From Escherichia coli (lineage in GTDB: Bacteria; Pseudomonadota; Gammaproteobacteria; Enterobacterales; Enterobacteriaceae), in the NCBI RefSeq assembly GCF_003991155.1, contig NZ_CP031293.1: 64,000 bases of DNA; one strand, given 5' to 3'. Of this stretch, positions 13,845-33,621 are shown in pieces (positions within the stretch are counted from its first letter, which is position 1; every line of letters starts with the position of its first letter). The notes under the pieces are model-generated. The model worked only from the letters and a program-made list of their open reading frames with translations. It was not told the origin of the DNA and made no database searches. The position numbers and the translations under genes were made by a program.

Positions 13845-14567
13845 TCAGGCCAACTCGCAATAAAGGCAGCAACTATGCTTGAAGCCCCTTCCCCGCCGGA
13901 TAAATAATATCCTTACGGCAATTGGTAACCGTATAAAAGGCCTGATGTTTTGAACTGCCGTTGACGGAGATGAAGTAATCTGCTTTTTTGGCAGCATCCA
14001 ATAACGCATCAATGGCAACGCGATCATTGTTGAGCTCAATTCATAGCGCTGGATACAATTTCAATAAGGCGTCTTTACCACGTTGCGTGGCATTTTTGTA
14101 ATACTGTAAAACACCCGCTTTTTCCCGCGGAGATTCCGATACAACGGAGACGTTACGCTTGCTGGTATGGTTTCTGTCGGGAGGGTACTACCGATATCCT
14201 TACAAGCGTAGAGCTGTTCCATCATGCGTGCCAACAACAACATACGGATATCCAACCGTTCCCAGCGACGTAGGAACATCTCGCGAATGTTAATCCAGTA
14301 CTGTAGTCGGCGATCGCTATCACCAGATTCACAATCATAAAGAACCTCTGCAATATCAAGAGTATACTTGAGAATTTATGTCGATTCATTTTTCGTGCAC
14401 AACATTTCGATAGCTTCGAGGGCATCATGGTATTCTTTGTGACTGAAGGTCCATGAAAGTAACGTATCGAGAATAATCCCTGTAGTTGCCAAAATGAGTT
14501 GATCACTACACAATGATTTGTTTGTACAGAAGGAACGATTATTATATGTTCTTGTAGGGCAGAGCAC
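13845..14567 (-). pseudogene. stop/frameshift-interrupted remnant of an unidentified gene (four short minus-strand ORFs in different frames)
   Basis: Consecutive 63-94-aa minus-strand ORFs that overlap or abut in shifting frames; no intact start/RBS context; lies at the left edge of the island. Confidence 0.35.
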
Positions 14568-14684
14568 GTTGCTACCGTAACAGCGTTGAAGATAATTTGG
14601 CCGAGACTGTAGTGGCCCAGTTTAAAAGGTAGCAGAATTTTAAAAGTGTCAGGTGCATAGAATTAAAAAAATGGAACTATAAAA

Positions 14685-16418
14685 ATGGAAATCATATTAC
14701 CAAAAAACACCTTATATGACAGAGAGCAAAATGTCTTTTTTGAAAAGGTTACGGCCTTAATTGGCGAAAATGGTGCTGGTAAGTCCTCGATTTTACAATC
14801 CGTATTTATTAACTGTTTAACAAAAAAATATCTACCAGAAACAAAGGTTGTTTGTTTTTCTTCTGGACAAAATGAGAAATACTCAACGTACTTCTCTGAT
14901 TATCTTTCTCATGAAAGGCAAGCAAATAGAGGTCTTAACTTAGATTGTTGTTATTACGATAAATCATGGTCAAAGTTACTAATATTCATATCCACAATTT
15001 GTAAATCAAATGGTCTTGTTAGAAATTTTTTATGTGAGAAAGGCTATATTGATGTATCAGATGATAAAAATGATGATATATCAAGCAAGCTTACATTGAC
15101 GGTCCGAGTAAATTCGGCTTACGTTAATCGAGTAAAAATGGCATTAGCACAAGAAGAACAAGGTATTGAAAATACTTTAAGGTATTCAGCTTATCATAGG
15201 ACTTTAGAAAGTTTCATTAATAATATTGTTAATGCTGATTATGATTTCGAGTCTCCACTTGAAGCTCAAGAGATCTTGCTAACTCATTCAAATTTTTTCA
15301 ATCCATCATTTGAGGAAGCAGAAGATTCCTTTTTTGATCCTATCATAACATTTTTCACTCAAGCAGCAGATAATGATTACTTTATAATAAAACCATCATT
15401 ACAGCTAGAGTTTAAAAATAATATCGAACTGAATGATATTAGTGATGGGGAATATCAAGTACTCTTTTTATACTCTCTGCTTGATATTTTTGATAGTCCT
15501 AATACTTTATTCTTATTAGATGAGATAGATTCCCATTTACATTACAAGAATATTGAGCTCTTATGGCATCGACTACATAGTATTAATGGTTATGCGATAA
15601 CAACCACCCATCTATTAGACTCAATTACAGCTACTGATAATGATTTTAAAAACTTAAAGATTGTTGATAAAGGAAAAATAAAAGAAGATGATAAAATAAA
15701 AACTATAATAGAACGTTTATCTGTCTTGACAAGAATATCAGACGTACAGTTCGAAGTGTGTCGTAAACTAGAAAACATAGTATTGATGGATGATTATAAT
15801 GATTGGACTATTTTTTATGCCTTAGCAAAGAAAAAAGGACTTGATGTATCAAAGTTAGATGGCCTCCATGCAATAAAACAGTCCTCTGGTTACGATAATT
15901 TAAATCAAGAGTTCGCAAAACCAAAAATAGAGTGGATTAATTCGCTTTTAAATGTAAATACTGATAAAAAAGTCAAAAGAATATTCATGATCTGCGACAA
16001 AGATGAGGCTCCAATTACCTATCAGAAAGATGGAGTTCAAGTCAATGGAAGTGAATATTCAAAACATATAGCGAAGTTAGAAAATAAAAACAAAAATAAA
16101 ATATATCTCCTTGCATGGAAAAGAAGAGAAATAAAAAACTACTTACTATCTTATACGGCATTGTCCCATCATGGATTTATCGAGCAAATAAACAATGGAG
16201 ATCTGCCAGCTAACAGTTATTTAAAAGAAAACGATCCTGGAGATAATTCAGCAATTAGCCGGCTTAACGTAAAACATTGCATCACAAAAATAATTGATTC
16301 TGATGGTATAGGATTAGATATATCAAAACTTTACTCATATATAGAACTTATACCACCTGCTGAGATCAGTGAAGATATAGTGAACATGTACAATTTTTTG
16401 GTGGAGAAATTAAAATGA
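14685..16418 (+). CDS. ABC-type (OLD/AAA_21-like) P-loop ATPase, 577 aa, with possible C-terminal TOPRIM/DUF4435-like nuclease region
   Basis: Walker A LIGENGAGKSS, signature-like ISDGEYQ, Walker B LFLLDEIDSHLH; C-terminal acidic motifs FMICDKDE and WKRREIKNYLL; very AT-rich; stop overlaps next gene start (ATGA at 16415-16418). Confidence 0.7.
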   Translation: MEIILPKNTLYDREQNVFFEKVTALIGENGAGKSSILQSVFINCLTKKYLPETKVVCFSSGQNEKYSTYFSDYLSHERQANRGLNLDCCYYDKSWSKLLIFISTICKSNGLVRNFLCEKGYIDVSDDKNDDISSKLTLTVRVNSAYVNRVKMALAQEEQGIENTLRYSAYHRTLESFINNIVNADYDFESPLEAQEILLTHSNFFNPSFEEAEDSFFDPIITFFTQAADNDYFIIKPSLQLEFKNNIELNDISDGEYQVLFLYSLLDIFDSPNTLFLLDEIDSHLHYKNIELLWHRLHSINGYAITTTHLLDSITATDNDFKNLKIVDKGKIKEDDKIKTIIERLSVLTRISDVQFEVCRKLENIVLMDDYNDWTIFYALAKKKGLDVSKLDGLHAIKQSSGYDNLNQEFAKPKIEWINSLLNVNTDKKVKRIFMICDKDEAPITYQKDGVQVNGSEYSKHIAKLENKNKNKIYLLAWKRREIKNYLLSYTALSHHGFIEQINNGDLPANSYLKENDPGDNSAISRLNVKHCITKIIDSDGIGLDISKLYSYIELIPPAEISEDIVNMYNFLVEKLK

Positions 16419-18322
16419 ACACCTCTTTATTTGAAGATCTACTTACACTAATCAAGAAAAAGAGTTCGATAAGGAATACAGAACAAGCAGTAGAGTTAAT
16501 TTCATTATTTATTTTTTTACATTATATAAAATTATATCTTTATGAAAATGATAAAAGATTTTCAGATATAAAAAACATATCAAGCAACAACATTAATGAA
16601 ATTAAATATTATTATCAGCAACTATATGAAAGTTTTATTTTCTCGATAGATATAAAAAATATAAACCACGACATGCTTGAAAAGCTCAGGAGTAAGATAG
16701 GTTTTTTAATTAATAACATCAATGACCATGAAATAATTAAATATATAGATTATTCTATTTCGCAGATACATTCACTTACAGAATTCTATCAATATGCAAA
16801 TTCTTATCAATCTTTAATTCTTAGGATGGTTAATGAATCGGGTCGTTCAGGTGAATATGTTACTCCATCTGCTTTAGTTCAGCTCATGGTTGAAATGTTA
16901 TCACCTACAGATGGCACATCAATCTACGACCCCGCATGTGGAACTGGGGGTTTATTAATAGAGTCAGCACGATATATTAAAGGCAACAGTTTAAACAAAA
17001 ACTTAAATTTAAATTATTCCCTTATTGGTAATGACACATCATCATTTGCCTGTCTAATCTCAATTGTTAACCTTTTAATCAATAAAGAATTTAATTTTGA
17101 AATAATACTAAAAGATAGCTTAGATATAAATTATAAGAATACAAAATATGACTTTATTTTAACTAACCCACCATTTGGGAAAAAGAGCGGTTGGGATAAT
17201 ATTCATATTGACACACATTATAAAGGACCTAATCTAGACTATTACTTCCTGGAGCATGTTATTGACTCTCTCGCTGTTAATGGCAAAGCAGCCATAATAT
17301 TACCAGAGCGTTTTTTATATGATGTGAGTAAAGAGTGCATCACTCTTAAAGATAAGATCTTCCAAAATTATAATTTAGATTGTATTTTATCTATACCGTC
17401 AGGTGCATTGCTTCCTTACACTGCAGTAAAATTATGTATTCTTTTTATAAGTAATCCTGGCCCAACAGATAGAATATTTTTCTACAATTTAAATAATGGT
17501 GAAAAATACTCACGTACAAATATTATAAAATTCGATGATTTTATAGATTTTTTAGAGTCAGCAAAAAATAGAACAATAACTGAACACTCCTGGATTATCA
17601 ATATTAGTGATACACCTTCATCTTATAACTTACTCTTAAAAGATAAAGAGCGAAACTCATATGAGTTTCTTAGTGATTCTATAGTTAACATTGAACAGAC
17701 AATACGTAATAATGAATTATTACTAACAGAGTTGTCTTTATTAAGAGAAAAAATAGCAATCTTAGAGTCAACAATAAAAAATCATTCGCATGAATATGAA
17801 TTTGAGAGACTTAAAGTTGGAAATATTGCAATAGTAAAATCCGGAAATTTATTACAAAAAAACAGGCTGTTACCCACTGGACCAATTCCTGTATACGGTG
17901 GAAATGGAGTTATTGGATATAACAATGAGGCAATGGTAAATGGTGAAAATATTATTATTGGTAAGGTCGGAGCTCTTTGCGGAAACGTTCGGTATGTTCA
18001 AGGTGATATTTGGGTGACAAATAACTCATTAATTATTAAGAATTATTTACCAAATAAAGTTTTAACACCCTACCTTGCAAAGTTATTATCTACTTTAAAC
18101 TTAAGAAAGCTCGCCGTTGGTACCGCTCAACAATATTTAACCACAACACAAATAAAAAATGTAGAAATTAGCATTCCACCTTTAACGACCCAGCATAAAT
18201 TAAATATGTGGCTTGATGAGTTAGATAATACCCTTGAACAATATAATAAGCTCATTGAAAAAATAATGAATGATAAGCGAGAACTTAAAGAGAATTTGTA
18301 TAAAGGTCTTTTAATAGAATAG
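16415..18322 (+). CDS. N6-adenine DNA methyltransferase (HsdM-like) fused to a single type I specificity (HsdS-like) target-recognition domain, 635 aa
   Basis: Motif I YDPACGTGGLL and motif IV LTNPPFGKK; C-terminal ~180 aa resemble an HsdS TRD plus conserved helix (...GKVGALCGNVRYVQGDIWVTNNSLIIK...); translationally coupled to the upstream ATPase. Confidence 0.75.
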   Translation: MNTSLFEDLLTLIKKKSSIRNTEQAVELISLFIFLHYIKLYLYENDKRFSDIKNISSNNINEIKYYYQQLYESFIFSIDIKNINHDMLEKLRSKIGFLINNINDHEIIKYIDYSISQIHSLTEFYQYANSYQSLILRMVNESGRSGEYVTPSALVQLMVEMLSPTDGTSIYDPACGTGGLLIESARYIKGNSLNKNLNLNYSLIGNDTSSFACLISIVNLLINKEFNFEIILKDSLDINYKNTKYDFILTNPPFGKKSGWDNIHIDTHYKGPNLDYYFLEHVIDSLAVNGKAAIILPERFLYDVSKECITLKDKIFQNYNLDCILSIPSGALLPYTAVKLCILFISNPGPTDRIFFYNLNNGEKYSRTNIIKFDDFIDFLESAKNRTITEHSWIINISDTPSSYNLLLKDKERNSYEFLSDSIVNIEQTIRNNELLLTELSLLREKIAILESTIKNHSHEYEFERLKVGNIAIVKSGNLLQKNRLLPTGPIPVYGGNGVIGYNNEAMVNGENIIIGKVGALCGNVRYVQGDIWVTNNSLIIKNYLPNKVLTPYLAKLLSTLNLRKLAVGTAQQYLTTTQIKNVEISIPPLTTQHKLNMWLDELDNTLEQYNKLIEKIMNDKRELKENLYKGLLIE

Positions 18323-18330
18323 ATCACAAT

Positions 18331-18357
18331 AGCAGGGTGTCCATAAAACACCCTGCT
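18331..18357. terminator. hairpin between convergent genes (AGCAGGGTG-loop-CACCCTGCT), possible bidirectional terminator
   Basis: Perfect 9-bp stem seen in sequence between the + strand MTase gene and the - strand hsdR; no clear U-tract. Confidence 0.4.
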
Positions 18358-18402
18358 ACTGGTTGCAAGTAAGTTGCAATATCTGTACTGCTGAAGCTAC
18401 TA

Positions 18403-21400
18403 TTAATAATGCTCCTCAATATACCCATACGCCTTCTGGAACAACTCTTTATCTTTCCCTAGTCCAAACTGGGCCAAGGTCAGTAAAAGCGCCTTTTGGA
18501 TTTCGCGCGGGCCACTGTTGGAATTTTGCCAGCCATCAAAGCGGGTAGCTTTCACAATTTTATCAATTTGCTCTACAACATCACCGATTAACTTAGGGGT
18601 AGTTTCCGGACGTGTTTCGAGGAAAAGCTTAGTCAACGCCTGTTTATTATCAGCTTCAGTTACTGGGCGCTCGCCCGTTTCGCGCTCGGCTTGAACGGTA
18701 TCTTTCGCTGCATCCAACAGGCCTTTCAACCAGTCAATGGCCTTGATAACACCAGCTTCATAGTCCTGACGCAGTTTTTCAAGGCGCTCGCCCAATGCCA
18801 CAAATTTAGGATCATGACTGCCGCGCAAACGTCCCATAAGATCAATCTCCAGGCGTTTGGCACGTTGTTCCTGCTCTTTAGCGGTCAGGGTAAAAATAGC
18901 GTGCTCGTCCATAACCAACTCGTCAATATCATCGCGAATACGATTGATATCAGTATGCTCATGGATCATCTTGATTGTTTCGGGGCCAAGGGCAGCCCAA
19001 ACAAGCGCACCTGTCTGCCCTACCGGACGCACCGATTCATAAATTTGCGCCAGCCATTTATAGTCCTGACGATAAGAGGTCAAAAAAGGATCTGGGTTGA
19101 TAGCTGACCATAACTTGGATAACACACCAAAGCTGGCAGCGAATTCATCGCGTTTCTCGTTGGTCGGCAGGCATTCCTGCGCGGCCATAATACCTTCAAA
19201 ACCAGCTATGGACCGATCCACACCAGGGAAGAAGGACAAACATTTATTCAGTTGTAACGGCAATAGCTCTTTAAATGCCTCAATTCCCTCTACAACTCCT
19301 TCAATTTCTTCAGGGTTATAGGCCAGAGCGGTACGCAGATTTTCGAAAACGCCGAGGTAGTCGATAATTAATCCCATGTCCTTGCGTACAGTATCGGTTT
19401 CGTACAACCGGTTGGTTCGGCACATGGCCTGAAGAAGAGTATGATCGCGTAGAGGCTTATCGAGGTACATGCAGTAGCAAATCGGGGCATCAAAACCCGT
19501 AAGCAGCTTGGCGGTTACGATAATAAGCTGTAATGGATGTTCAGGATCTTTAAAGCATTCAATCAGATCCTTTTGCACCTGTTCTTCGGCATCAATGTGC
19601 TGCCAGCGTTCAAAATCGACTTGTTTGACTGGCAGCTCCAACTCATCATGCCATTTAAGCCAATCCTTGTTGAGCTTGTCTTTTTTGCCACCCTCTTCAA
19701 CTTTAACCGGAGCCTGGTCAACGTTCATAACCACTTCAACCGCATCAAAACCAAGCTTTTCACCGAGCAAATAATACATCTGCACACAGGCTTCGCGATC
19801 GTATACCACAACCATGCCTTTCATCTTTTTCGGCATAACATGGTTGGTAAAATGCTCAGCAATATCATTACTCACCGCAGCCATACGCCTAGGGGATTTC
19901 AGCATGATTGCCAGCTTGCCTGCACGCCTGGACAATGCTGCTTTTTCTTCTTCATCCAGGTTGTTTTCGGTAGCCAGTTGCTCGAACTCTTCATTGATGG
20001 CATCACGATCCACTCGGAGTTCAGCCAGCCGAGGTTCGAACTTCACCGGGTTAGTTGCGCCATCCCGGATCGACTGCTTATAGCTATAGCGGCTCATATA
20101 GCGACCTGGATCTTCTTCGGCACCGAACAATTTGAACGTATTACGATCAATGCCAGAAATCGGAGTACCAGTCAGGCCATAGAAGTGGGCATTGGGCAAC
20201 GCCCAGCGCATTTTCTCGCCTAATCCCCCTTCCTGTGTACGGTGAGCTTCGTCAACCAACACAATGATATTGTCCCGGTTGTTCAGGCCATTAGGGTTGC
20301 TATCGTCAATTTCGATATCTTTAAATTTAAAGATGGTGGTGATTAAAATGCCACGGCTGTCTTGTTCTATGTATTCACCCAACTTTTTGCAGCTTTGCAC
20401 TTTAATCAGATTCTTAACGTCGGCTCCGCCAAAGGTCTCGTTAATTTGGCTGTCCAGATCTCGCCGGTCCACAACGATAAGTACCGTCGGGTTTTTTAAC
20501 GCATTATCGGCACGTAGCATTTTGGCGGCGTAAAGCATCAACAAGGATTTACCCGATCCCTGGAAATGCCAAATAAGACCTTTTTTTGGATAGCCTCTGC
20601 GAACACGCTCAACAATTTGTTTTGCAGCTTCAAATTGCGGATAACGCGGCAGGATTTTAACGCGTTTAGGTGGAGTATTTTTGCCCGTTTTGACGGTTGA
20701 AAATAATGCAAAAGATTCAAGTAACTGCAATAAGGTTTGTGGATTTAACAAACTCTCACAGCTGTTGAGTACCGATGCTAATCCCGGCAGAATTTCATCA
20801 CGAAGCTCAGTATTATGCCAGGGCCCCCAGTCTTTAACTCTGGCATTAATGGCACCATAGGCAAAGGTTTTTCCTTCGCTGGCAAAGCACAGCAAGTTAG
20901 GTACAAAGAAAGATTCAACATTTTTCCAGTAGTACTTTTTGCCACCCATGAAATCGGCAGCACCGTCTTGCCAGGTCACGCTGGGGCGTGTTGCGGTTTT
21001 AACTTCGCCCACTACTAGCGGTATGCCGTTCACATAAAGAACAATATCAAAATAGACTTCAGTGGCCGCGATATAGCGAACCTGCTGCGCCACCACAAAG
21101 TGGTTGTTCTCTATATTGTCAAAATCAATCAGATTGATGGTGATATGGTCGCCATTCTTACCAAAAGGCAAGGTTTTGTCGGCCATCAACCATTCCTGGA
21201 AGTTTTCATTGGCCTTTACCAAGCCGGTATGGCGGGCTTCTAAAACCACTCCTCGCAGTTTGTAAATGACCTCATCGGCATAGTCAGGCTGTCTGCCGAT
21301 ATCAGGGTTTAACGAACAAAGCGCGTCTTTTAGCCACTCATCAACGAAGATATCCTGCGCTTGTTTAGGCAGGTTTTCACCGTGGCAGTAAGTCCACTTG

Positions 21401-21465
21401 ACTCCGCTTAAACCTTTTAAACGGTCGATAATTCCATTTTCTGTGACGGTTTGTTCGTTAAACAA
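18403..21465 (-). CDS. hsdR: type I restriction enzyme R subunit (HsdR), 1020 aa
   Basis: N-terminal PD-(D/E)xK-like DIVLYVNGIPLVVGEVK; helicase motif I HFQGSGKS and DEAH box IVLVDEAHRTQ; directly follows hsdS. Confidence 0.9.
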   Translation of the reverse strand: MFNEQTVTENGIIDRLKGLSGVKWTYCHGENLPKQAQDIFVDEWLKDALCSLNPDIGRQPDYADEVIYKLRGVVLEARHTGLVKANENFQEWLMADKTLPFGKNGDHITINLIDFDNIENNHFVVAQQVRYIAATEVYFDIVLYVNGIPLVVGEVKTATRPSVTWQDGAADFMGGKKYYWKNVESFFVPNLLCFASEGKTFAYGAINARVKDWGPWHNTELRDEILPGLASVLNSCESLLNPQTLLQLLESFALFSTVKTGKNTPPKRVKILPRYPQFEAAKQIVERVRRGYPKKGLIWHFQGSGKSLLMLYAAKMLRADNALKNPTVLIVVDRRDLDSQINETFGGADVKNLIKVQSCKKLGEYIEQDSRGILITTIFKFKDIEIDDSNPNGLNNRDNIIVLVDEAHRTQEGGLGEKMRWALPNAHFYGLTGTPISGIDRNTFKLFGAEEDPGRYMSRYSYKQSIRDGATNPVKFEPRLAELRVDRDAINEEFEQLATENNLDEEEKAALSRRAGKLAIMLKSPRRMAAVSNDIAEHFTNHVMPKKMKGMVVVYDREACVQMYYLLGEKLGFDAVEVVMNVDQAPVKVEEGGKKDKLNKDWLKWHDELELPVKQVDFERWQHIDAEEQVQKDLIECFKDPEHPLQLIIVTAKLLTGFDAPICYCMYLDKPLRDHTLLQAMCRTNRLYETDTVRKDMGLIIDYLGVFENLRTALAYNPEEIEGVVEGIEAFKELLPLQLNKCLSFFPGVDRSIAGFEGIMAAQECLPTNEKRDEFAASFGVLSKLWSAINPDPFLTSYRQDYKWLAQIYESVRPVGQTGALVWAALGPETIKMIHEHTDINRIRDDIDELVMDEHAIFTLTAKEQEQRAKRLEIDLMGRLRGSHDPKFVALGERLEKLRQDYEAGVIKAIDWLKGLLDAAKDTVQAERETGERPVTEADNKQALTKLFLETRPETTPKLIGDVVEQIDKIVKATRFDGWQNSNSGPREIQKALLLTLAQFGLGKDKELFQKAYGYIEEHY

Positions 21466-21466
21466 T

Positions 21467-22633
21467 TTATTGTCCCCTCAGAAGAATATTCAAATAACTG
21501 GACTTGAGTTTACGAATTTTTTGAAGCCTTGATTTAGCTTCTCTATAACTGTTTTCGGCTAAATGTAATATATCCTTATATTTCCCAAGCTCTCTTGATG
21601 GTGGTATAACCATCTTCTGAGAATGTACATCGGCATCATTAACAGCCGGGAAACTTGTACCAACTGCCAAATTGGTTAATGAATAAGTGAATTGCTTCGA
21701 CAAAGTGAAATAATAAATAAAATCGGACAAATCATTTTTTGCCCTTAGAACAGTAAAACCTGTTGATGCTATTGAATCATTCAATATTTCAGACACATAA
21801 AACGTAGCTCTATGATTGGGTCTAACAGTGCTAACAACAATATCTTTTTCCTTAAGAATACGCCGAGCTCGGCTGGGGGCTTCAGCGAAATGGTATTCTT
21901 TAGGAGTATCGACAAAACCAGGAAAAGTCACTGAAGATATATCTATATACCTAATCAGCTTATTTTTATTGGCATCATTACTTAACAAGTCAAAATTAAT
22001 ATTTGATACATCCTTCAATCTAACTTTGTTATATCCAAATGGCAGTTTTTCTTTTCGATCAAATGTAGTCAACCGATCAATTAATCTTTGAAATAAATTT
22101 AATGCAGACCTTTCAGTCTCATTTGCACAATGTAATACTTGTTCGATTTTTTTTAAAGAATTTAAAAAATCAACTTGCAGATCCATTTCAGGAATAATAA
22201 ATTCCTGCTGACTTAAAACTTTCCATTTTATCGTTGGAGACAATGACCCCTCCGAAATTGCTACTGCACGATTCATGAAAGTATCAGACTGCATAATAAA
22301 GGGTAAAAACTCAGGTATTACAGTATTTGAATTTGCCTCCAGAACCATGGCATGAGCCGAACAGATACAATCCCAATCTGCTACCGCGACTTTACGTTGA
22401 TAAGCACGACGCTTACCAAAAATAATCTGGCCTTTTTTCACTAAAAGCTTCTGCCCTTCAACGTCACTGGGTGTACCATGACGTTTGATTTTCAGGCTGT
22501 CAGGGTCTAAATGCTCCAAACCGACATAAATTTCAAGGTCTGTCTCGCTCGGTTCCACTCGTTTAGAGATATGTTTAGCGATATCGCCAAACTTCACCAT
22601 TTGCCAGCCTTCAGGTAATTGCTGTTCTGTCAT
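21467..22633 (-). CDS. hsdS: type I restriction-modification specificity subunit (HsdS), two TRDs
   Basis: 388-aa protein with two variable regions separated by conserved spacer; second TRD coding region markedly AT-rich; abuts hsdM and hsdR. Confidence 0.85.
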   Translation of the reverse strand: MTEQQLPEGWQMVKFGDIAKHISKRVEPSETDLEIYVGLEHLDPDSLKIKRHGTPSDVEGQKLLVKKGQIIFGKRRAYQRKVAVADWDCICSAHAMVLEANSNTVIPEFLPFIMQSDTFMNRAVAISEGSLSPTIKWKVLSQQEFIIPEMDLQVDFLNSLKKIEQVLHCANETERSALNLFQRLIDRLTTFDRKEKLPFGYNKVRLKDVSNINFDLLSNDANKNKLIRYIDISSVTFPGFVDTPKEYHFAEAPSRARRILKEKDIVVSTVRPNHRATFYVSEILNDSIASTGFTVLRAKNDLSDFIYYFTLSKQFTYSLTNLAVGTSFPAVNDADVHSQKMVIPPSRELGKYKDILHLAENSYREAKSRLQKIRKLKSSYLNILLRGQ

Positions 22634-24133: not shown

Positions 24134-25629
24134 ACCTCGAAACCTTCTTTGATAAGCAGGGCCTCCAGCTCCTCTTCTGCTTTTTCCAGCTCAGCCAGCT
24201 TCCGTTGAAAATCTTTGAGCGCCTCTTCCACAGTGATGGTTTCTTCTTCGAGTGGCTTTTGCACATAACGAGCAATATTTAGATTGAAGTCATTTTCTTC
24301 AATCTCCTTCAGAGAAACCCAGCGTGCAACGCCTTCGATTTCTTTTGCATCTGGCCCTTGTTGCGCCTGGTCATGATAGATTTGGTATATTTCATCGGCC
24401 TGCTTGTTGGACAGCGTATTCTGCGCACGTCCCTTGGTATAGATTTCTTCAGCATTGATGATCAATACATGATCTTTATGCGCGGCCGGACGTGATTTAC
24501 GCAGCACCAAAATACACGCAGGAATCCCAGTCCCATAGAACAGGTTGGAAGCAACACCAATAATCGCCACAATGCGATTCTCTTGCAGTAATTTGGTTCG
24601 AATTGCCCCCTCTGCGCCGCCACGAAACAGCACACCATGAGGTAATACGACTGCCATACGTCCATTGTCGTTAAGTGAAGCAAACATATGCTGCACCCAG
24701 GCAAAATCACCATTTGTTTTAGGCGCCAGGCCATATTGCTTACGGCCATAGGGATCGTTCGACCACAGATCGTATCCCCATTCTTTTAAGCTAAATGGTG
24801 GGTTGGCAACAACGCAGTCAAAGGTTTCTAAACGATCGCTTTTTAAAAATTTAGGTTCGCGTAAAGTATCCCCTCGGACAATATCGAAATCTTCCTGTCC
24901 ATGCAGGAACAGATTCATACGCGCAATAGCTTCCGTCGTTAAGTTCTTTTCCTGACCCTTGATTTTTAGTAAACGCGGATCACCACCATTTTCTTTTACA
25001 TGGTGGATGGTCTCAAGCAGCATACCACCGGTACCACAGGCGGGATCGTAGACACTCTCACCGGCTTTTGGATCAAGAATGTTAACCATCAAACGAACGA
25101 TAGTTCGTGGGGTATAGAACTCACCGGCTTTCTTATTGGCTTTGTCTGCAAAGCGTTTGATCAGATACTCGTATGCGCGCCCCATATCATCGTCACGGAC
25201 ACTAGAAACGCCAAGGTTCACCTTATTGAAGTGATTGAGTAACGTAGCCAGTAACTCATCAGAAAGGCGTTCTTTATTGGTCCAGCTGGCATCGCCAAAA
25301 ATGCCATGCAGTTTAGGGTTTGCCAGTTCTATACCACGGAAGGACTCTTTTAAAGCCTGACCGATGTCCTTGGTCTCAGCGAAAACATCGCGCCAGTGGC
25401 AATTTTCAGGTATCTGAATACGGTGAAACATCTTGCCCTTGGCAAGCTCTGCATCCCCAATGCTCTCCATCGCATCGGCAAATTCTTCGTCATACACGTC
25501 ACAAATGCGCTTGAAGAACAGGATGGGGAAAATGTACGTTTTGTAATCTGACGCATCAATGGGCCCTGTAATAATATGGGCTGCATGCCATAGATGGGCC
25601 TCGAGATCTTTTAGGTTAATCAGTGTCAT
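24130..25629 (-). CDS. hsdM: type I N6-adenine methyltransferase subunit, paralogue A (500 aa)
   Basis: ORF 24130..25731 trimmed to MTLINLKDLEAHLW; motif I YDPACGTGGMLL, motif IV VANPPFSLKEW; homologous over full length to paralogue B. Confidence 0.85.
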   Translation of the reverse strand: MTLINLKDLEAHLWHAAHIITGPIDASDYKTYIFPILFFKRICDVYDEEFADAMESIGDAELAKGKMFHRIQIPENCHWRDVFAETKDIGQALKESFRGIELANPKLHGIFGDASWTNKERLSDELLATLLNHFNKVNLGVSSVRDDDMGRAYEYLIKRFADKANKKAGEFYTPRTIVRLMVNILDPKAGESVYDPACGTGGMLLETIHHVKENGGDPRLLKIKGQEKNLTTEAIARMNLFLHGQEDFDIVRGDTLREPKFLKSDRLETFDCVVANPPFSLKEWGYDLWSNDPYGRKQYGLAPKTNGDFAWVQHMFASLNDNGRMAVVLPHGVLFRGGAEGAIRTKLLQENRIVAIIGVASNLFYGTGIPACILVLRKSRPAAHKDHVLIINAEEIYTKGRAQNTLSNKQADEIYQIYHDQAQQGPDAKEIEGVARWVSLKEIEENDFNLNIARYVQKPLEEETITVEEALKDFQRKLAELEKAEEELEALLIKEGFEV

Positions 25630-25872: not shown

Positions 25873-26910
25873 TTGGCGCAAAATGGCGGCATTTCCTCAT
25901 TTCTCCATCGGAGCATCTTACGCGCTATAACCACTCTCGTTTTTTCCTATTCCCATGCAGATGAAGCACTACGCAATGAACTTGAGAAGCATCTCTCCCC
26001 GCTGAAGCGAACCGGGAAGATCACAACATGGCACGATCGCCGCATCGTTCCTGGTCAGGAGTTCGAACGTCAGATCGACCACTATTTTTCGCAAGCAGAT
26101 ATCATCCTGATCCTGATCAGCAGTGACTTTATTGCTTCTGATTACTGCTATCAGGTAGAGATGAAAAACGCACTGGAACGGCATAACCGGGGCGAGGCAG
26201 TGGTCATTCCGGTAATTTTAAGAGACTGTGCATGGCATCAGTTAGAATTCGGCAGCATTATGGCGGCGACTATCGACGGTAAACCCATCACTAAGTTTGC
26301 CACCCACGATGAAGGCTACGTTCAGGTCGTCGAGGCTGTCTCGCGTGCCATTGCCCGGATGGAAGCCAAAAAACCACAGCAAACCATACATATCCCTTCA
26401 CCGGCTCCGGCGAATCCGATCTTTCAGGGAGTAGATTCCGTTTTTACACCGCGTTCAAGCAACCTTACTCTACCCAAGAAATTTACCGATCTGGATAAAG
26501 ATCGTGCCAGACGTGAGGGCTTTGAATATGTTGCCCGCTATTTTGAAAATTCGTTAGATGAACTCAAAAAGCGCCACCCCGGATTAGATATCGATTTTAA
26601 TCGGCTTGATACAGATTCATTCACCTGTGCCGTGTATATCAATGGCAGTAAGGTCGGCCAATGTGGCATCTGGCGAGGCAATCAACATCATGGAATGGGA
26701 GATATCTGTTATAGCCAGGATAATGTTGTTCGAAACAGTATTAACGAAACTCTAAGCCTTGCTGATAACGGCCAGACTCTTGGTTTTCGTGCTCTGATGG
26801 GAGGCTTCAGTCGAGGAACTTCACGAGACGAACTATTGACCAATGAAGGTATGTCGGAACATCTCTGGGAAATGTTCTTCGGGCTAATCAAGCAAAGAAT
26901 GTCCCGATAA
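25873..26910 (+). CDS. TIR-domain protein with uncharacterised ~180-aa C-terminal domain
   Basis: TIR-like N-terminus (VFSYSHADE..., WHDRRIVPGQEF, ADIILILISSDFIASDYCYQVEM with a Glu at the expected catalytic position); only in-frame start is TTG at 25873 and no clear Shine-Dalgarno, so the N-terminus is uncertain. Confidence 0.65.
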   Translation: MAQNGGISSFLHRSILRAITTLVFSYSHADEALRNELEKHLSPLKRTGKITTWHDRRIVPGQEFERQIDHYFSQADIILILISSDFIASDYCYQVEMKNALERHNRGEAVVIPVILRDCAWHQLEFGSIMAATIDGKPITKFATHDEGYVQVVEAVSRAIARMEAKKPQQTIHIPSPAPANPIFQGVDSVFTPRSSNLTLPKKFTDLDKDRARREGFEYVARYFENSLDELKKRHPGLDIDFNRLDTDSFTCAVYINGSKVGQCGIWRGNQHHGMGDICYSQDNVVRNSINETLSLADNGQTLGFRALMGGFSRGTSRDELLTNEGMSEHLWEMFFGLIKQRMSR

Positions 26911-26925
26911 TTTGCCATATCACAG

Positions 26926-26947
26926 TCGGGCATACTGCCCGATTTTT
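26926..26947 (+). terminator. rho-independent terminator downstream of the TIR gene
   Basis: Stem TCGGGCA/TGCCCGA with 3-nt loop followed by TTTTT. Confidence 0.65.
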
Positions 26948-27094
26948 GTGCTGTCATTATTGGCAATATCTCAATAGGCGTTGAGAAATGGTGCAATTTA
27001 ATCTTGCCAGAGCGCTGTTACTTGGGGACGAAATTAATGGGCTCCTGCTGTAGTTACAGCAACGCCTGTAAATACAAAAATAGGCGTTGCAAAT

Positions 27095-28150
27095 TCATGC
27101 TGGCAAATACGTTTTCTTAAGCGGCACCAATAGCTTAGTCTCTATATCCACTTGCTCATAGTTTTCAACTAACGCGCGTACCAAATCATCCAGCGTCCAT
27201 AGCGTCAACGGGATTGTAGAACGATCGGCCTCATAACGCGCATCCTTGCTGAATCCGCCGGTACTGACATACAGCCCGCGATCGTCTTTATGGCGGCCAC
27301 CGATAAAGCTACGGATTTGCTGGCTGCTCATCTGTTCCCGCCGGTGCTTCACCTCAACAATAATGCGCGGATTTTCAAACCCAAATCCGTCAGGCGAAGC
27401 AATGATGTCTTTCCCACGGTCAGCACCCGCAGGCGATACCTGAGTTTTATATCCCATGCTGCGTAACACGCCAGCGACCAGATTCTGCATCTCATCCCAG
27501 TCGAGACGGTTGATACGATCCTTGATGCCTTCAAAAGCGATCATTTCCATGTCGCGCAGAGGATTAGAAACGACCTCATCCTCTTCACCTGAAACAGGTA
27601 CTTCCGGCACGATATCTGAGACAGGCTTATTGCCCTGCACTAATTCATTCACAGCAAAATCAGGCACCTGAAAAACTGTCAGCGTTGAACCAAGGGTGTT
27701 TCTAGTTGCATCACTCAGACTATCGCGCTTAATCTCTTCCGCATTCCACTTCACTTTACGGGCGATGCCCATGCCATCTTCAAGCCACTCGGCATGAAAC
27801 TCAAAATCTGACGCTATTTTCCCTATTAAATAGGTCCGATTAGAAGGTGAATAAGTGATAGCCCAGTCGCCTTTCTGCATTTCATTCACAAAGCGCCAGA
27901 CCTGAGAAGCTCCAGAACGAACTGTGCCTGGCTTAGTCTGTGGCTCAAGCTCCTGATACCGGGTAAACAACTGCTCTCTTGAGCATCCAGGTTTCACATA
28001 GGGAGCGAGCTGCGACCAACCAATTGCAACAACCTGTTTGTCTCTGAAGTCGTCGTACAATTTTCCGCCATCACCGCGGATCATCCACATCTTAGTCGCC
28101 ACAATAATTCCTTCTGAAAATACTTCATCGTTATACCGGGACGTGATCAT
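27095..28150 (-). CDS. Mrr-family (PD-(D/E)xK) restriction endonuclease with N-terminal PUA/EVE-like putative modified-base reader; probable type IV enzyme
   Basis: C-terminal domain alignable with E. coli Mrr catalytic region (DIIASPDGFG...IIVEVKHRR...LYVSTGGFS); start set at ATG 28150 preceded by AAGGTGG; N-terminal RFVNEMQKGDWAITYS resembles EVE-domain core. Confidence 0.7.
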   Translation of the reverse strand: MITSRYNDEVFSEGIIVATKMWMIRGDGGKLYDDFRDKQVVAIGWSQLAPYVKPGCSREQLFTRYQELEPQTKPGTVRSGASQVWRFVNEMQKGDWAITYSPSNRTYLIGKIASDFEFHAEWLEDGMGIARKVKWNAEEIKRDSLSDATRNTLGSTLTVFQVPDFAVNELVQGNKPVSDIVPEVPVSGEEDEVVSNPLRDMEMIAFEGIKDRINRLDWDEMQNLVAGVLRSMGYKTQVSPAGADRGKDIIASPDGFGFENPRIIVEVKHRREQMSSQQIRSFIGGRHKDDRGLYVSTGGFSKDARYEADRSTIPLTLWTLDDLVRALVENYEQVDIETKLLVPLKKTYLPA

Positions 28151-28212
28151 TCCATTCAGCCACCTTATCCAGGGGAAAAACACCGATAAGATGGCTAATC
28201 AAAATGTCTGTT

Positions 28213-31200
28213 CTAAACCTGACGCCTATCAAGACTATTATAAATAGCCTCAATCTCACCTTTCAGGTTATCACCAGAGTAAACCATCGATGTATCGTAT
28301 CGTTCATATCGCGCTTCCCGTGTCGCACTAAACCAGTTGAACGATCCCACGCATAGCAAACCATCATCACCAATAACAATTTTGCTATGAACACGGTTTA
28401 CCAGCTTTGTAGCAATACCCAGCGCATTCAGTTTCTCCAGCGCCGCTTTAAGGTTCTGCTGCTTCTCTTTTCGCTTCTCAAAATCTTTATGTTCAGTGTT
28501 GTAGCTTCTGTCAGTGACTATCGTGACGTTAATACCACGTGAACACGCCGCAATCATGGAATCAAGAAAACCCGTTTGCTCCAGCTTTTGCCAGGTCAGC
28601 CATGGAGAAACTATCGTGATGTGTTTATCGGTATTTTCAAACGTCTGATTCAGGAAGTTATCATGCTGCTCCACACCATGAAGTGTGTAGATTTTGGTCT
28701 CGGAAGTTTTTAAATCCTTACGCTCTTTATAATCAAAAGAGAGCGCATTCTTCTCGAACTCAAAGAGATATTTTGCCAGCAATCCTCGCGGAGATGAGGG
28801 AGCCTGGATCTCAAACAGATCCATATCGCCGAAGACCAGGAAGCTATCCTTCGCACGGGAGACTGCAACATTCAGCATGCTGTTATCGCTATCAATAAAC
28901 CCGCCGTCTTCATGTTTTGAATAGACTGGCGAGAATATAACAATCGCTCTTTCCGCTCCCTGAAGAGAGTGCACGGTGCCCACTGTGAGCGACTTTTCAT
29001 TCGCGCCCGTACTGATACCTTGTTTACCCAGCGCCTGTTTTATAGTGGATACCTGCGCGCTAAAAGGCGTCACGATACCGACAACTTCATGAAGCGATTT
29101 GCCGTAATGCGCTTCAATATTTTGCTGGTTCTCTGCCAACCAGGCCGCTATCGTTTCAGCCTCAAGCAAATTATATCTACTTCCACTACTTGCCTGCTCT
29201 CCTTTACCATCAATATGGAGATAACCCATTGCGGGCATTAAATTGCTCTCTTCACGCCCTCTTTTAGGCAACAACTTACCGTGATAGCAGAGCGTATTAC
29301 AGTATCCAATAATATTATCGAAGCACCGGCGGTGTTCATATAGGTACATACCACGAGCCAGTTCGGGATCATATTGATAGCGCGAAGCAAACTGCGCTAT
29401 TTTCATAACGCTGCCAGATGCGGCACTTTTACCAAGGTCTGCGATTGCCGTATATTTCTCGGTAATCTCTTCTTGCGTACTGCCAGACAGAATTTTTTCC
29501 GCCAGCATGTTACCGACATCAATCGCGGGAGCAATACTCCATATTGGCGGGATCTGCTCCGTATCGCCAATCACTAATGCCTTCTTAGCTAATGCAAACG
29601 AGGCAGCAGCCACTTCAGGAAGCACCTGCCCGGCTTCATCGACAATGAGTAAATCGGCAAAATCATACAAATAACTTTTCTCGAATTTACGTTGTCCTTT
29701 GTGCTCACTTATCTGCATATTGCCGGGCAGCATATAGCATGTCATCACCACACATGGAGTGAGTTTCATTCGACGTTGCCAACGGGCGGTTACCCCTTTA
29801 GCGCCTTGTTTCTTCTTCTCTTCCTGCAGATCATCAATTCTGGCCATATCCATCAGCCAACGACCTTCCCAGTAGTGAGTCGTCAGTAAAAATGCAGGGA
29901 AGCGAATCTGCGTATCAGCCAGTTCATCGGCCTGTGAGAAGCTCAGTTCCTCGTCGCCCTCATACCCTAAATCAAATGCCAGCCTCTGCCACTCCTGAAC
30001 CGCCTGCTGTTCTTTAAGAACGATTTCATGGGCGGAGTCAATCTGCTGCCGGTATGTTGTTTGCTCGCGCTCAGCGGAATTGAGCAGCCCATCAATATTA
30101 CGTTCGATAGTTTCAGGATCAGACCACTGATTTCCTGCAATCAGCGCGCCTAATTTATCTTCGAGAAACAGCTGTATTTGGTACTGTCGCTTATTGCGAA
30201 CCGCCGGGAGCCAGGAAAATAATGAATAGATCAGTGATTCACCGGCGCGATATTTTTTCCATTCCGTTTTAGCACTCTTCAGTAGAGTGACTTTTTGTTC
30301 TTGTCCGGAAAGTAATTTATTTAAATTATCGAGATATTGCTCAATATCATTAGCAATAAGCTCACGCGCAGCCCGAATCTGGCTTAACATTTGCCATGTT
30401 GCGTTCAGTCTTATCAGTTGCTCGGATTTTGCTGCCAACTGACCATGCAGGAGTTCAATGATCTTTTCAGGGGATGAACACTCTTTTTCAGGAAAGGCTG
30501 CCTTAGCCTTCTCCAGATAAAACAGCAGTGCATCCTCTACATACTCTTTTGACTCAACCTGGGTGAAGAAATCTTCAGTTTGATATTTTTTGGCTGCCTC
30601 AGCTTTACGAGTGCTTGAGGGAAAATAAGCGCCGAAGCTTTTCAGCTCTGGCAACCATCGTCCGGCCATCGCACCTGAACCTTGCGAAAAGTCTTTCCCG
30701 AATGCCTCAATAATGTTCGTTACAGCCTGGTTATTCGTTGAAGTCGCGATAATAACCGGAGGCTCAGATTTTTCGAGAGCTGCTCTGGCCCACTGCGTGG
30801 CGATGATAGAAAGCACCAGCGTGGTTTTTCCGGTTCCCGGAGGTCCATTAACAGCAAGGATATCGCCATGTCTTGCATCCAGAAAATGGCTTAAGGCATC
30901 GCGCTGAGCCTTTGCCAGCGGAAACTTATCTCCGGAGTGTCCAAGCCTGTCGCTGAATTTTGCTCCTGGGGCCAGCAAAGACTCTGCAGCATGAACCTCT
31001 CGCGAGGCGAAGCGATTGAAGAGCGGCACATCCTTCTTGCAAACAAGCAGGTGATCATAAAGAGAAAGGATATGGAAACTGGCACCGCCAGATTGCGCCG
31101 TTTTAACAATATAACCGTGCTCAGCGAGTACATATTGCTCAGGATTTTTAATCCAGTCGCCGGCAACATTCTTCAGCAGCCTCTCTGAATCATCCAGATA

Positions 31201-31728
31201 TTGACGCCACTCCTGCTGCAAGGCTGCATATCGTGCTTCCCGTTCTTCATCCGTTTCGGCAGTCTTATCAATGCTGTCATCAAAGTTGATAGAGAACGAG
31301 GTATGGATTGTCTTGTATTTGTCATACTGCCCAATATCACCAATCGAAAATGCTCCTTTTGGCAAAGGTTCAAGCAGGTCTCTGGGAATGGAGGTCGCTG
31401 GCGTCGGATATAAAAAACCCTCACGGCTTAGCAAGGCTGGCGTCACTAGCGGGGTAACAATATCAGGTGCGCCTGCGGAACGGTCCTTACCATGCTGCAG
31501 TAACCGAAAATAAACTTTTGGGCGCAAGACGACATCGACCGTTTCGACATCGTCTTTTTCTCCCTCAAAAAATTTACTGACAATCGCTTCGTCAAGACGT
31601 CCCGCCGCTATCCCATGCCAGTGAGTGAAATTTTTGGCGTCTTTCCGTTCAAAACTGCCCTTTCCTGACTCAGCATCTGCAAGCGAGTTGCGCCAGTATG
31701 AGGCAAACCCTAAAGCATTTTCATCCAT
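28213..31728 (-). CDS. SF1 (Upf1/DNA2-like) helicase fused to C-terminal PLD-family nuclease, 1171 aa; architecture resembles type II Mokosh
   Basis: Walker [13 protein letters not shown], Walker [10 protein letters not shown], helicase motifs [16 protein letters not shown] and [12 protein letters not shown]-terminal HKD motif [20 protein letters not shown]. Confidence 0.75.
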
Positions 31729-32053
31729 TACCAGTCCTATGACTCAATGAAATCCATTGATTTATCGAATATAAAATCACCGTATGGATAACTATTGTCC
31801 ACGTTGAAAGGCTGGCTGCAATGTTTTGTTCACGCTTCGATACAAATACTCAGGTTATACGGAGTTCAGAAAACGACCATATCATGTTGCATGGCACATA
31901 AAAGCTTTATAACCGAAGCAGCAAAGGATTACCGGCTGCGCAGCACGCCCCGAAAGCCCGTGAGCCCTGCTGGACAGCGTTCAGTGCAATATTGGAGCCT
32001 GTAAGTTCAGAAAATATCGCTGTCGAAGATGGTTCTGTATGTAGGCGCGCCAG

Positions 32054-32431
32054 CTATCGTTTTGTCCGATGCTTGCGAATAAAAGCATTCAAAATGTCGC
32101 CTTCACCATGCATGACAGAAAAAGAATATTCACATTCTTTCTTTATCAAGATTCCACATAATTCCTGGTGCAAATCAACATTAACTCCCTTTCCTTTCTG
32201 CGCTTTCTTCACACCGAGCTCACATGAACTGATTAATTCAACGTTACAGGGTTTCTTCAAACAATTCACACCATCAATTAAGCCATGGAGAATGCATCTA
32301 TTTGCGGTCGTATCACTGTAGGAGAAAGTCAGATATTTTATTTTTCCTTCGCATTCCAGCACAATTTCCGCCGAACCTTCACGTGTTGCAGCATCACAAC
32401 CTCCTGTTGAATATATTTTTACCATCTTCAT
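32054..32431 (-). CDS. small RNase HI-like protein (125 aa) lacking the catalytic acidic residues
   Basis: Alignable by eye with E. coli RNase HI (VKIYSTGGC vs VEIFTDGSC; TTANR vs TTNNR; NVDLHQEL vs NVDLWQRL) but D10, E48, D70 positions are T, I, S/C; good SD (AAGGGG) before ATG. Confidence 0.6.
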   Translation of the reverse strand: MKMVKIYSTGGCDAATREGSAEIVLECEGKIKYLTFSYSDTTANRCILHGLIDGVNCLKKPCNVELISSCELGVKKAQKGKGVNVDLHQELCGILIKKECEYSFSVMHGEGDILNAFIRKHRTKR

Positions 32432-32499
32432 TTTGTAACTTTCCCCTTACCAAACGAATCGCGACATCCTATATCAAAGGCATTCTCGTCAAAACTTAA

Positions 32500-33279
32500 T
32501 TATCTCAGTAAATTCTTCCGATGCCACTCCAGATAACAATACGATTCAACAGAAAACGCCTTTATTTTCTCCGGCAACAAACATTGCTCTTTAACGCTAA
32601 TATCCAGCGCCTTACTAATTAATAAATGCCCATCGTTCTCAAACGAAATCCATCCCTGATCGAATAGAATATCAATATGCGCAGCCAATATAATTCCATT
32701 AAAAGGATCAAGACGTTCATTTCCATTCTCGCAGGCAGCCCACGGCTTTATATGGCTGGCACGCAGTAAAGGTGCAAAAGTCGTTCCCGTAACAGGGCAT
32801 GCCGGATACAACATGAGACAATTTTTCCGAAAGGTACCTTGCCCCAGCCGTGCCGCAATCAGCTGCTCGCGTACGGTATCTTCAATACTTTTATCCTGCT
32901 GAATAGCAAGACAGTCTCGTTGTGCCTGTTCATCTCCAGCAGAAGATATTAACGAAAGAACGCGCTGCTCAATCGCACTGTCTGAAAGCACACTCATTCG
33001 CTGATACACACGCTGCGCTGAATGAGAAAGCGCAGCAGGAGCGCCCTGCTCGTCAAGCCAGCCGACACGTACATCACTAAGCCAGGAATCAAAACGGTCA
33101 CGACTATTTTTCAGACTATTGTGAAACTCACTGGCAGTTTTGCCCGCTCCAAATCGAGGATAAAACAAGGCAAAAGCCTCTTTCCATTTCTGAACACCCA
33201 GTCCTGCGGGTGGTTGAGATTTTCCGTACTTCGACAAATACCACGCCACTTCAAGCAAATCGTCTTCAGAGCTATTCAA
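32500..33279 (-). CDS. HNH-family endonuclease with uncharacterised N-terminal domain (259 aa)
   Basis: C-terminal HNH-like motif ...ASHIKPWAACENGNERLDPFNGIILAAHIDILFDQGWISF; TTG start (first in-frame ATG is ~100 codons in). Confidence 0.6.
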   Translation of the reverse strand: MNSSEDDLLEVAWYLSKYGKSQPPAGLGVQKWKEAFALFYPRFGAGKTASEFHNSLKNSRDRFDSWLSDVRVGWLDEQGAPAALSHSAQRVYQRMSVLSDSAIEQRVLSLISSAGDEQAQRDCLAIQQDKSIEDTVREQLIAARLGQGTFRKNCLMLYPACPVTGTTFAPLLRASHIKPWAACENGNERLDPFNGIILAAHIDILFDQGWISFENDGHLLISKALDISVKEQCLLPEKIKAFSVESYCYLEWHRKNLLR

Positions 33280-33621
33280 TATTACGTCCTGTTTTTGCAG
33301 AGTAAATTATCACCAGATTATATCTGAAAAGATCGTTTACTAAACTGATCTGCTTACCTGCAAAACGGTACTGCAAACGCTAATACTCAGAACCATTAAG
33401 AGGAACAAGCAGGTGCATTCCGCTGCCATCGGTCAGTTTGTATTGCTTATCCCCTGCCTCTAGGTACAAGCATTTTCGAAACGGAAATACCATCATCTGT
33501 TGGTAGATGTACGTTGAAGTTGGTTCGCCTTGAGAGAGTTAATATAGCGGGAATGATAGGTAAATACTGGATTCCAGGCACAAAAAAAGCCGCCCTTGAG
33601 CGACTCGATTTGCATACGATG

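Follow-up and report, generated by a model that had tools for sequence, protein, structure and literature searches.

A cargo variant of the leuX defence hotspot of Escherichia coli, with an integrase scar, a DpdD scar and an OLD-like ATPase linked to type I restriction genes

We report on the DNA between nanS and leuX in an Escherichia coli genome (RefSeq assembly GCF_003991155.1, contig NZ_CP031293.1), studied within a stretch of 64,000 nucleotides referred to here as the window. A sequence-only reading of this stretch had proposed an accessory island of stacked nucleic-acid-targeting genes next to leuX, and such an island is indeed present, occupying window positions 13802-33621 (19.8 kb), varying among strains and holding 11 intact open reading frames (ORFs) between its edges. 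The locus has already been described as E. coli defence hotspot #37, of which this island is an ordinary variant, so that at this level our result is a correct rediscovery of what is already known. We consider it highly probable that the island is a single, immobilised cargo variant of that hotspot, built by successive integrations at the leuX attB site, by deletion and by replacement of modules in place. Its systems belong to known families (a PacII-type type I restriction-modification (R-M) system and Mokosh type II) or to catalogued candidates (PDC-S02 and a ThsB-like TIR protein). What we add are the scar of an integrase, the scar of a DpdD gene, the PacII-type and Mokosh type II assignments, and the linkage of an OLD-like ATPase to type I genes.

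The island at leuX and how it probably formed

The edges of the island are defined by the following features.

12837..13823, plus strand: nanS, core flank, placed by way of a RefSeq-annotated strain whose island is identical; the 13801/13802 junction lies 22 nt inside its 3' end
13876..14522, minus strand: decayed remnant of dpdD, about the last 200 codons, with in-frame stops and one frameshift, read by conceptual translation
33351..33450, minus strand: 5' remnant of a P4-type (DUF4102/arm-type) integrase gene, homologue of K-12 intB, found by blastn and alignment
33622..33706, minus strand: leuX, tRNA-Leu(CAA), the hotspot anchor (ARAGORN; Rfam tRNA, 59 bits)

ARAGORN finds leuX as the sole tRNA gene of the window, with its 3' end towards the island, and an Rfam scan of the island returned nothing beyond the tRNA. 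Alignment to other E. coli genomes, which the sequence-only reading had proposed as a check, placed the edges at 13801 and 33351: blastn homology to K-12 ends at the first position and returns at the second. The left breakpoint, 13801/13802, is the same against K-12 and against strain 13KWH46, whose cargoes are unrelated; because it falls within nanS, the last seven or so NanS codons are encoded by the island. Strain MRY15-117, which differs from the window by one mismatch in 40 kb outside the island, is annotated in RefSeq in the order fim, nanC, nanM, nanS (to 13823), eleven genes, leuX, ahr and idn. The whole island occurs in about 100 of 5,426 complete E. coli genomes, the set to which all population counts given here refer.

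Hotspot #37 is one of 41 E. coli defence hotspots mapped by Hochhauser et al. (2023; PMC10121019). It is occupied in 97.3% of genomes, 97.4% of the occupied copies carry at least one defence system, 31 system types have been found in it, and 68% of occupied copies are without a detectable mobile element; P4-like satellites are present in some genomes, and the supplement of the same study lists integrase-less islands with Mokosh_II and RM_type_I (PMC10121019). A 2025 EcoSal review (Raleigh; PMC12707154) likewise gives leuX as the anchor of hotspot #37, reports type I, Dpd, BREX and DISARM systems there, and regards the presence of an arm-type integrase beside the anchoring tRNA as typical. The island in the window lies between nanS and leuX/ahr, its cargo is variable, and PADLOC, another check that had been suggested, recognises a type I R-M system and Mokosh II (MkoC) in it. 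It thus shares with the hotspot the leuX-anchored site, the presence of several defence systems together, replacement from strain to strain and the frequent lack of a detectable mobile element, and differs from it in nothing essential, being one cargo combination with a stub of about 100 bp in place of an integrase. That integrase-less occupancy is the majority state of hotspot #37 (PMC10121019; PMC12707154) lay beyond the knowledge of the sequence-only reading.

That reading had also given K-12 different content at this tRNA, and K-12 indeed carries the KpLE2 element of about 40 kb there instead, in the order leuX-intB-...-yjhR-nanS. KpLE2 has the same boundaries (window 13801 and 33351), its intB corresponds to the integrase stub, and its yjhR is a decayed relative of the island gene mkoC (70% DNA identity), but it consists of about 40 kb of insertion sequence (IS) elements, fec, sgc, yjh and nanXY genes, while the R-M, TIR and OLD-like genes of the island are all missing from it.

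Both edges bear scars. On the leuX side, window 33351-33621 aligns to the part of K-12 that follows leuX, first intB codons included, and other E. coli genomes have intact integrase genes whose 5' ends match the stub at about 85%. A 49-bp deletion relative to 13KWH46 has removed the start codon; the equivalents in 13KWH46 and in strain A10 are annotated by the Prokaryotic Genome Annotation Pipeline (PGAP) as 'DUF4102 domain-containing protein, missing C-terminus'. The earlier statement that no integrase stands beside the tRNA therefore holds for an intact gene and not for this P4-type 5' stub. On the nanS side, the element previously noted as a degraded pseudogene can now be named: it matches the NCBIfam DpdD model NF041061 at 5e-33 (profile positions 496-697 of 704) and the PADLOC DpdD model at 1e-50, corresponding to the C-terminal third of the protein. 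A dpd cluster sits at leuX in S. Montevideo; in the window only a decayed fragment of about 650 bp remains, and dpdA, dpdB, dpdC and other dpd genes are absent among the island ORFs. By sensitive blastn in E. coli the dpdD stub was found only in 102 genomes, all of them island carriers, was decayed in every one, and had no intact version; the Salmonella counterpart of the adjacent block does not have it either. The remnant is, from its profile matches, the scar of a former Dpd 7-deazaguanine modification/restriction cluster.

Two sister strains are informative about the interior. Strain 13KWH46 has window 27052-34000 in common, and its distal cargo consists of DISARM-like genes, fosA7.5 and an ISL3 element, so that the leuX-proximal block (the stub, an HNH endonuclease gene, a 125-amino-acid (aa) ORF, mkoC and an Mrr-like gene) is common to strains with a wholly different distal part. 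In A10 a primase-helicase element lies between the integrase stub and leuX (comparison locus L004:39508-39730), and next to the stub is TGGTGCCGAAGGCCGGACTC, a 20-nt repeat of the leuX 3' end. New elements can here be seen directly to be still inserting at leuX and pushing the old island inward. The scars at both edges, the shared leuX-proximal block with unlike distal parts and the A10 insertion are the basis for a model of accretion and decay, in which site-specific elements would have inserted repeatedly at leuX, their integrases and att sites would then have been lost by deletion, and internal modules would have been replaced in place. From the lack of an integrase and of att sites we infer that the island would today spread or be replaced solely where DNA delivered by transduction or conjugation recombines homologously across the conserved nanS/fim and leuX/ahr flanks. 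The resulting island would form a layered anti-phage barrier of a type I R-M system, an OLD-like accessory with its methylase, Mokosh II, two endonucleases and a solo TIR protein.

Several points weigh against this picture. Expression and a protective role of the island genes are predictions from sequence, and transfer through the flanks is deduced from absent mobility functions. The TIR, Mrr-like and HNH proteins match candidate or generic families only. Moreover, frameshifts, truncations and IS insertions occur in sister strains (a frameshifted mkoC, a truncated TIR gene, a split ATPase/methyltransferase pair and damage to hsdM), so that parts of the island are decaying and not maintained.

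Could the block still be an autonomous or mobilisable element, such as a P4-like satellite, an integrative mobilisable element or an integrase-only island, whose mobility genes were overlooked? The island does lie at the 3' end of a tRNA gene used by P4-type integrases, an integrase occupies exactly that position in K-12 and many other strains, and P4-like satellites reside in hotspot #37 of some genomes. However, all that is left of an integrase beside leuX is the stub of about 100 bp without a start codon, and the other ORFs of at least 80 aa show no similarity to recombinases, transposases, primases, relaxases or capsid genes. No copy of the leuX 3' end was found in the island at up to 3 mismatches over 23 nt or up to 2 over 14 nt, a degenerate search in agreement with the earlier failure to see such a repeat at the far boundary, and there are no long direct or inverted repeats bracketing the island. 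In addition, a single nanS-side breakpoint serves three unrelated island types, unlike an element-specific att site. We regard this explanation as largely refuted and very improbable.

The patchy composition described by the sequence-only reading was borne out by measured G+C (GC) content, which ranges from 0.29 to 0.49 across the island. The ATPase and methyltransferase genes are lowest (0.31 and 0.29), hsdS stands at 0.36 overall and 0.34 in its distal half, hsdR, hsdM1 and hsdM2 lie at 0.45-0.47 and most remaining island genes at 0.45-0.49, as against 0.55 in flanking ahr. The weakest alternative, that the region is ancestral chromosome lost by most E. coli lineages, would suit the syntenic core flanks and the absence of mobility genes, but is already refuted by distribution and composition, given its presence in only about 2% of complete genomes, GC values down to 0.29 against 0.55 in the flank, near-identical blocks in Salmonella (87-93% DNA identity), type I proteins 86-88% identical to those of Aliivibrio, and the scars of two other systems.

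A PacII-type R-M system and its OLD-like neighbour

The distal 11 kb of the island carry two adjoining sets of genes, a type I system on the minus strand and an ATPase/methylase pair on the plus strand. Subunits predicted to form N6-methyladenine (m6A) and N4-methylcytosine (m4C) are indicated.

14685..16418, plus strand: OLD-like protein, ABC ATPase with a C-terminal Toprim-like domain; Walker A GENGAGKS, Walker B LLDEID; GC 0.31
16415..18322, plus strand: N6-adenine methyltransferase (MTase), type I-like, fused to a single S-subunit target-recognition domain (TRD), hereafter M.S; motif IV NPPF; GC 0.29
18403..21465, minus strand: hsdR, 1,020 aa; NCBIfam TIGR00348 5e-143 (above cutoff), PADLOC REase_I 3e-110
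21467..22633, minus strand: hsdS, with two TRDs; PADLOC Specificity_I 9e-203
22634..24133, minus strand: hsdM2, predicted m4C-forming subunit; motif IV NPPY; 1012 bits over full length, PDB 7VRU chain B
24130..25629, minus strand: hsdM1, predicted m6A-forming subunit; motif IV NPPF; 980 bits over full length, PDB 7VRU chain A

PDB 7VRU is the PacII M1M2S methyltransferase (PMC9613975). In the m4C/m6A subclass of type I systems an M1 with NPPF forms m6A, an M2 with NPPY forms m4C, and the genes follow the order M1-M2-S-R (Morgan et al., 2016, PMC5100572). In the window, motif IV aligns as VVANPPFS in M1 and IFANPPYS in M2, the two proteins are 46-47% identical to each other, and the minus-strand order (25629>24130, 24133>22634, 22633>21467, 21465>18403) follows the M1-M2-S-R rule. 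Based on these motifs, the orthology to PacII M1 and M2 and the gene order, the double hsdM is assigned to the defined PacII-type m4C/m6A M1M2S subclass and is not a duplication. PacII-type systems share with the window the two HsdM paralogues (NPPF and NPPY), the gene order, the full-length, high-scoring M1 and M2 matches, and the conservation of the C-side components alongside variability of the other TRD; the S subunit of the window is unlike that of PacII, and m4C formation by the window allele is a prediction from sequence. M1 would thus place m6A and M2 m4C on the half-sites read by HsdS, while HsdR would translocate and cut unmodified DNA.

Within hsdS, the N-terminal TRD matches the S portion of an M2-S fusion model in PADLOC, and the distal TRD (21467 to about 22190) is the AT-rich, variable one. 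A10 departs from the window exactly across 21465-22190 and has a different S protein, a case of ordinary TRD swapping. Relatives in a matching gene arrangement occur in Aliivibrio, with identities of 86% for HsdR, 88% for M2 and 79% for M1 (the last over the approximately 130 residues fetched). In Aliivibrio salmonicida (L012:404-1288) a 294-aa ORF with no Pfam match, which has no counterpart in the window, lies between M1 and M2; additional ORFs are often found at that position in such systems (Morgan et al., PMC5100572).

The OLD-like ATPase is the sole part of the island without a described family, and is mildly novel. Its N-terminal domain has the Walker A, Walker B and ABC signature motifs of the OLD-family ABC ATPase. 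In its C-terminal domain the DxD (D438/D440) and an RRE motif are invariant among 33 homologues; the first acidic residue of the Toprim-like domain is Asp in the window protein, where OLD proteins have a conserved Glu together with the DxD, and the domain is recognised by no sequence profile. The protein is OLD-like, then, with a Toprim assignment that is moderately supported. Its closest structural matches are GajA, OLD and AriB; with the OLD relatives at large (P2 Old/class 1 OLD, GajA, PARIS AriA-AriB and the retron Eco8 effector), which give the best structural matches, it shares the succession of an ABC ATPase and a Toprim-like domain within a single chain of about 580 aa, and the conserved DxD. 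It differs from them in that the PADLOC and NCBIfam matches are weak and confined to the ATPase domain, without membership at the sequence level, and in that its partner is a type I-like methylase and not the UvrD helicase of Gabija, a separate AriB or a retron. Gabija, PARIS, Septu, MADS and Menshen were set aside as candidates, the matches being weak ones to the ATPase domain only (E 1e-14 to 1e-5) and the neighbour an N6-MTase; no GajB, AriB, PtuB, Mad gene or NsnA/C partner is found among the island ORFs.

The M.S gene overlaps the ATPase stop by 4 nt, and its product matches Pfam N6_Mtase (9e-42) and Methylase_S (1e-17) and PADLOC MTase_I (5e-63) and Specificity_I (9e-28). The ATPase family, with some 800 or more homologues, is widespread in Gammaproteobacteria, and in 8 of 8 contexts examined a type I-like methylase gene directly follows the ATPase gene, which also adjoins hsdR. 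The arrangements are as follows.

Type IB operon, hsdR-ATPase-hsdM-hsdS: P. aeruginosa; E. coli, beside Tn7-like tniQ/tniB; conjugative plasmids of Shewanella and Vibrio
M-S-R-ATPase-M.S: Raoultella
HsdR-McrBC-ATPase-M.S: Acinetobacter
M1-x-M2-S-R-ATPase-M.S: Aliivibrio
Same arrangement as the window: Salmonella

The family was absent from the phage collection searched, so phage carriage is not its route, and it is rare on plasmids, with four records, all of them type IB operons. These contexts bear on the earlier count of at least seven nuclease/methylase loci: the content is real, but the loci are not all independent, since the ATPase/MTase pair and the M1-M2-S-R genes travel together in Salmonella and Aliivibrio. 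The left 11 kb is a recurring composite and not a chance stacking, with different histories for its two halves. As a separate observation, the type IB operons carry a variable fifth gene after hsdS (L009:11599-13551, L018:14524-16542, L030:11566-12708), whose product is of the SIR2 family in Shewanella and, in Pseudomonas and E. coli, a 650-672-aa protein without a Pfam match; this position may accommodate additional effectors.

What might the pair do? The OLD-like protein and M.S would be co-transcribed and would most likely act as a type I-linked accessory nuclease, whether as an anti-restriction guard or as the nuclease partner of M.S. According to the first of these possibilities, which we hold as a tentative but real one, the pair is an accessory of the adjacent type I system, a latent OLD nuclease freed by anti-restriction attack and leading to abortive infection in the manner of PrrC/EcoprrI or PARIS. 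In type IB operons on conjugative plasmids, transposons and chromosomes a homologue separates hsdR from hsdM, with no more than a few bases between genes, Aliivibrio and Raoultella have the order M..S-R-ATPase-M.S on one strand, and the Salmonella arrangement is that of the window. The fold is nearest to GajA, OLD and AriB, whose ATPases gate a nuclease. ABC-ATPase-controlled nucleases at type I/hsd loci are, moreover, a published theme (PrrC, RloC, RloA/B): PrrC (of EcoprrI), RloC and the RloA/RloB of Campylobacter hsd loci share with the window an ABC-type ATPase gene in or beside hsd operons and a predicted nuclease as C-terminal or partner domain, and RloB is Toprim-like (PMC12065111), as is DUF4276. 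PrrC, RloC and TIGR04435 show no similarity to the window ATPase above family thresholds, and its effector domain is Toprim-like and not an anticodon nuclease. Against the accessory reading, the pair has the opposite orientation to hsdR both in the window and in Salmonella and is therefore not co-transcribed with it; its GC content is 0.30 against 0.45-0.47 for hsdR, M1 and M2; and identities to Aliivibrio of 59% (ATPase) and 37% (M.S), against 86-88% for R and M2, indicate different histories.

Alternatively, the pair may be a self-contained two-gene R-M system in which an M.S dimer methylates a symmetric site and the ATPase/Toprim protein restricts in place of HsdR. The 4-nt overlap, the constant adjacency of the two genes and the methylase's own specificity domain are in keeping with this, as is the Acinetobacter pair, which stands beside mcrBC and an integrase with no HsdM or HsdS in the stretch fetched. 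Yet all of the contexts examined have an HsdR gene close by, and in type IB operons the ATPase is extra to R, M and S, which argues against a role as the primary restriction subunit; we find this explanation doubtful. The strongest form of the accessory proposal, in which the OLD-like ATPase represents a new class of OLD-family nuclease that is an integral accessory of gammaproteobacterial type I operons, arranged as hsdR-ATPase-hsdM-hsdS or R-ATPase-M.S, and guards against anti-restriction by triggering abortive infection, is likewise speculative and, as a whole, somewhat unlikely.

The leuX-proximal genes and their distribution

The remaining five genes of the island are listed below.

25927..26910, plus strand: solo TIR protein, 327 aa (TIR_2 plus a Y4lF C-terminal domain); Pfam TIR_2 9e-14, PADLOC ThsB1 2e-153
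27095..28084, minus strand: Mrr-cat endonuclease with an N-terminal domain; Pfam Mrr_cat 3e-23 at residues 224-337, PADLOC PDC-S02 1e-82
28213..31728, minus strand: mkoC, Mokosh type II, 1,171 aa; PADLOC MkoC 1684 bits, residues 1-1169/1171
32054..32431, minus strand: 125-aa ORF, weakly RNase H-like; Pfam RNase_H 2e-4, no PADLOC match
32500..33279, minus strand: HNH_2 endonuclease with an N-terminal domain; Pfam HNH_2 4e-12, PADLOC HNH 9e-21

The mkoC product joins an Upf1-like SF1 helicase, with GPPGTGKT as Walker A, to a PLD nuclease at its C-terminus, with an HSK motif, and both motifs are visible in the translation; the C-terminus also matches the MkoB/DrmC PLD models and the helicase matches IGHMBP2-family models. 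At the sequence level it has the make-up of Mokosh type II as described by Millman et al. (2022), in which one chain begins with a COG1112/Upf1-like helicase and ends with a PLD nuclease, and no difference was detected. The 3' 1.2 kb of mkoC (window 28214-29434) is about 70% identical in DNA to the K-12 pseudogene yjhR (L002:40812-42031), next to nanS, so that yjhR has the appearance of a Mokosh type II relic within KpLE2.

The TIR protein matches the PADLOC model of the Thoeris protein ThsB at 2e-153, but departs from Thoeris in having a C-terminal Y4lF domain and no ThsA: no ThsA-like ORF was found in the island or in three homologue contexts from other genera, where there is also no constant partner. 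It behaves as a solo gene and is probably an NADase or a signal producer. The left-edge remnant had been a candidate for a lost ThsA partner, which its identity as DpdD rules out. The Mrr-cat enzyme is probably type IV-like and modification-dependent. The HNH endonuclease is probably modification-dependent as well, its HNH half being related to ScoMcrA-type enzymes; homologues about 60% identical across that half carry a DNA-SBD_ScoMcrA domain. In the 125-aa ORF there is apparently a Thr at what we take to be the position of the first catalytic Asp of RNase HI. This ORF always accompanies the HNH gene in E. coli, in about 141 genomes, and is absent from both HNH-homologue contexts sampled elsewhere (Yersinia and Salmonella), where the HNH partners vary. 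With no fixed HNH partner in other genomes, a conserved system formed by the two is unsupported.

Parts of the island differ in how widely they occur.

DpdD stub: 102 genomes
ATPase/M.S pair: 102 genomes
Type I block: 109 genomes
TIR plus Mrr-like segment: 99 genomes (at least 80% of the segment)
Mrr-like gene: about 148 genomes
mkoC-125-aa ORF-HNH block: about 141 genomes
mkoC: about 905 genomes

In the sequence type 131 (ST131) strain MB1159 (L005:20001-25503) a pathogenicity island carrying pap ends at tRNA-Phe with an intact arm-type integrase, and the cargo nearest to that integrase starts with an mkoC of 96.5% identity. Integrase-proximal carriage of mkoC is therefore found at a second tRNA site as well. 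In sister strains of the window, elements of the IS100/IS21-family, ISEc12, IS3-family, IS1 and IS621 (IS110-family) types have disrupted, in one strain or another, mkoC, type I genes or the Mrr-like gene (H61, H87, H111, H124, H136 and H153), which shows that the island is still decaying. Elsewhere in the window, at about 62575-63525, treR is flagged as partial (missing N-terminus) by PGAP in the near-identical MRY15-117.

Implications for leuX islands and type I loci

At the level of the island the importance of these results is small, since they find again the best-documented defence hotspot of E. coli, including the puzzle of how its cargo turns over without mobility genes. The island is nonetheless a worked example of how such islands form, with a 5' integrase stub at one end, a 3' DpdD stub at the other, a fixed breakpoint in nanS and informative sister strains. 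Taken together, the scars, the breakpoint and the sister strains support a course of accretion and decay followed by flank-mediated exchange, which would lead to defence islands that lack mobility genes. The part that merits experimental attention is the widespread OLD-like ATPase, tightly linked as it is to type I methylase genes. If its role as an accessory were true, the ATPase/MTase pair and the PacII-type system would be one two-layer unit and not two stacked loci, and if the ATPase guards type I R-M against anti-restriction, it would be a new class within the theme already represented by OLD, PARIS and PrrC.

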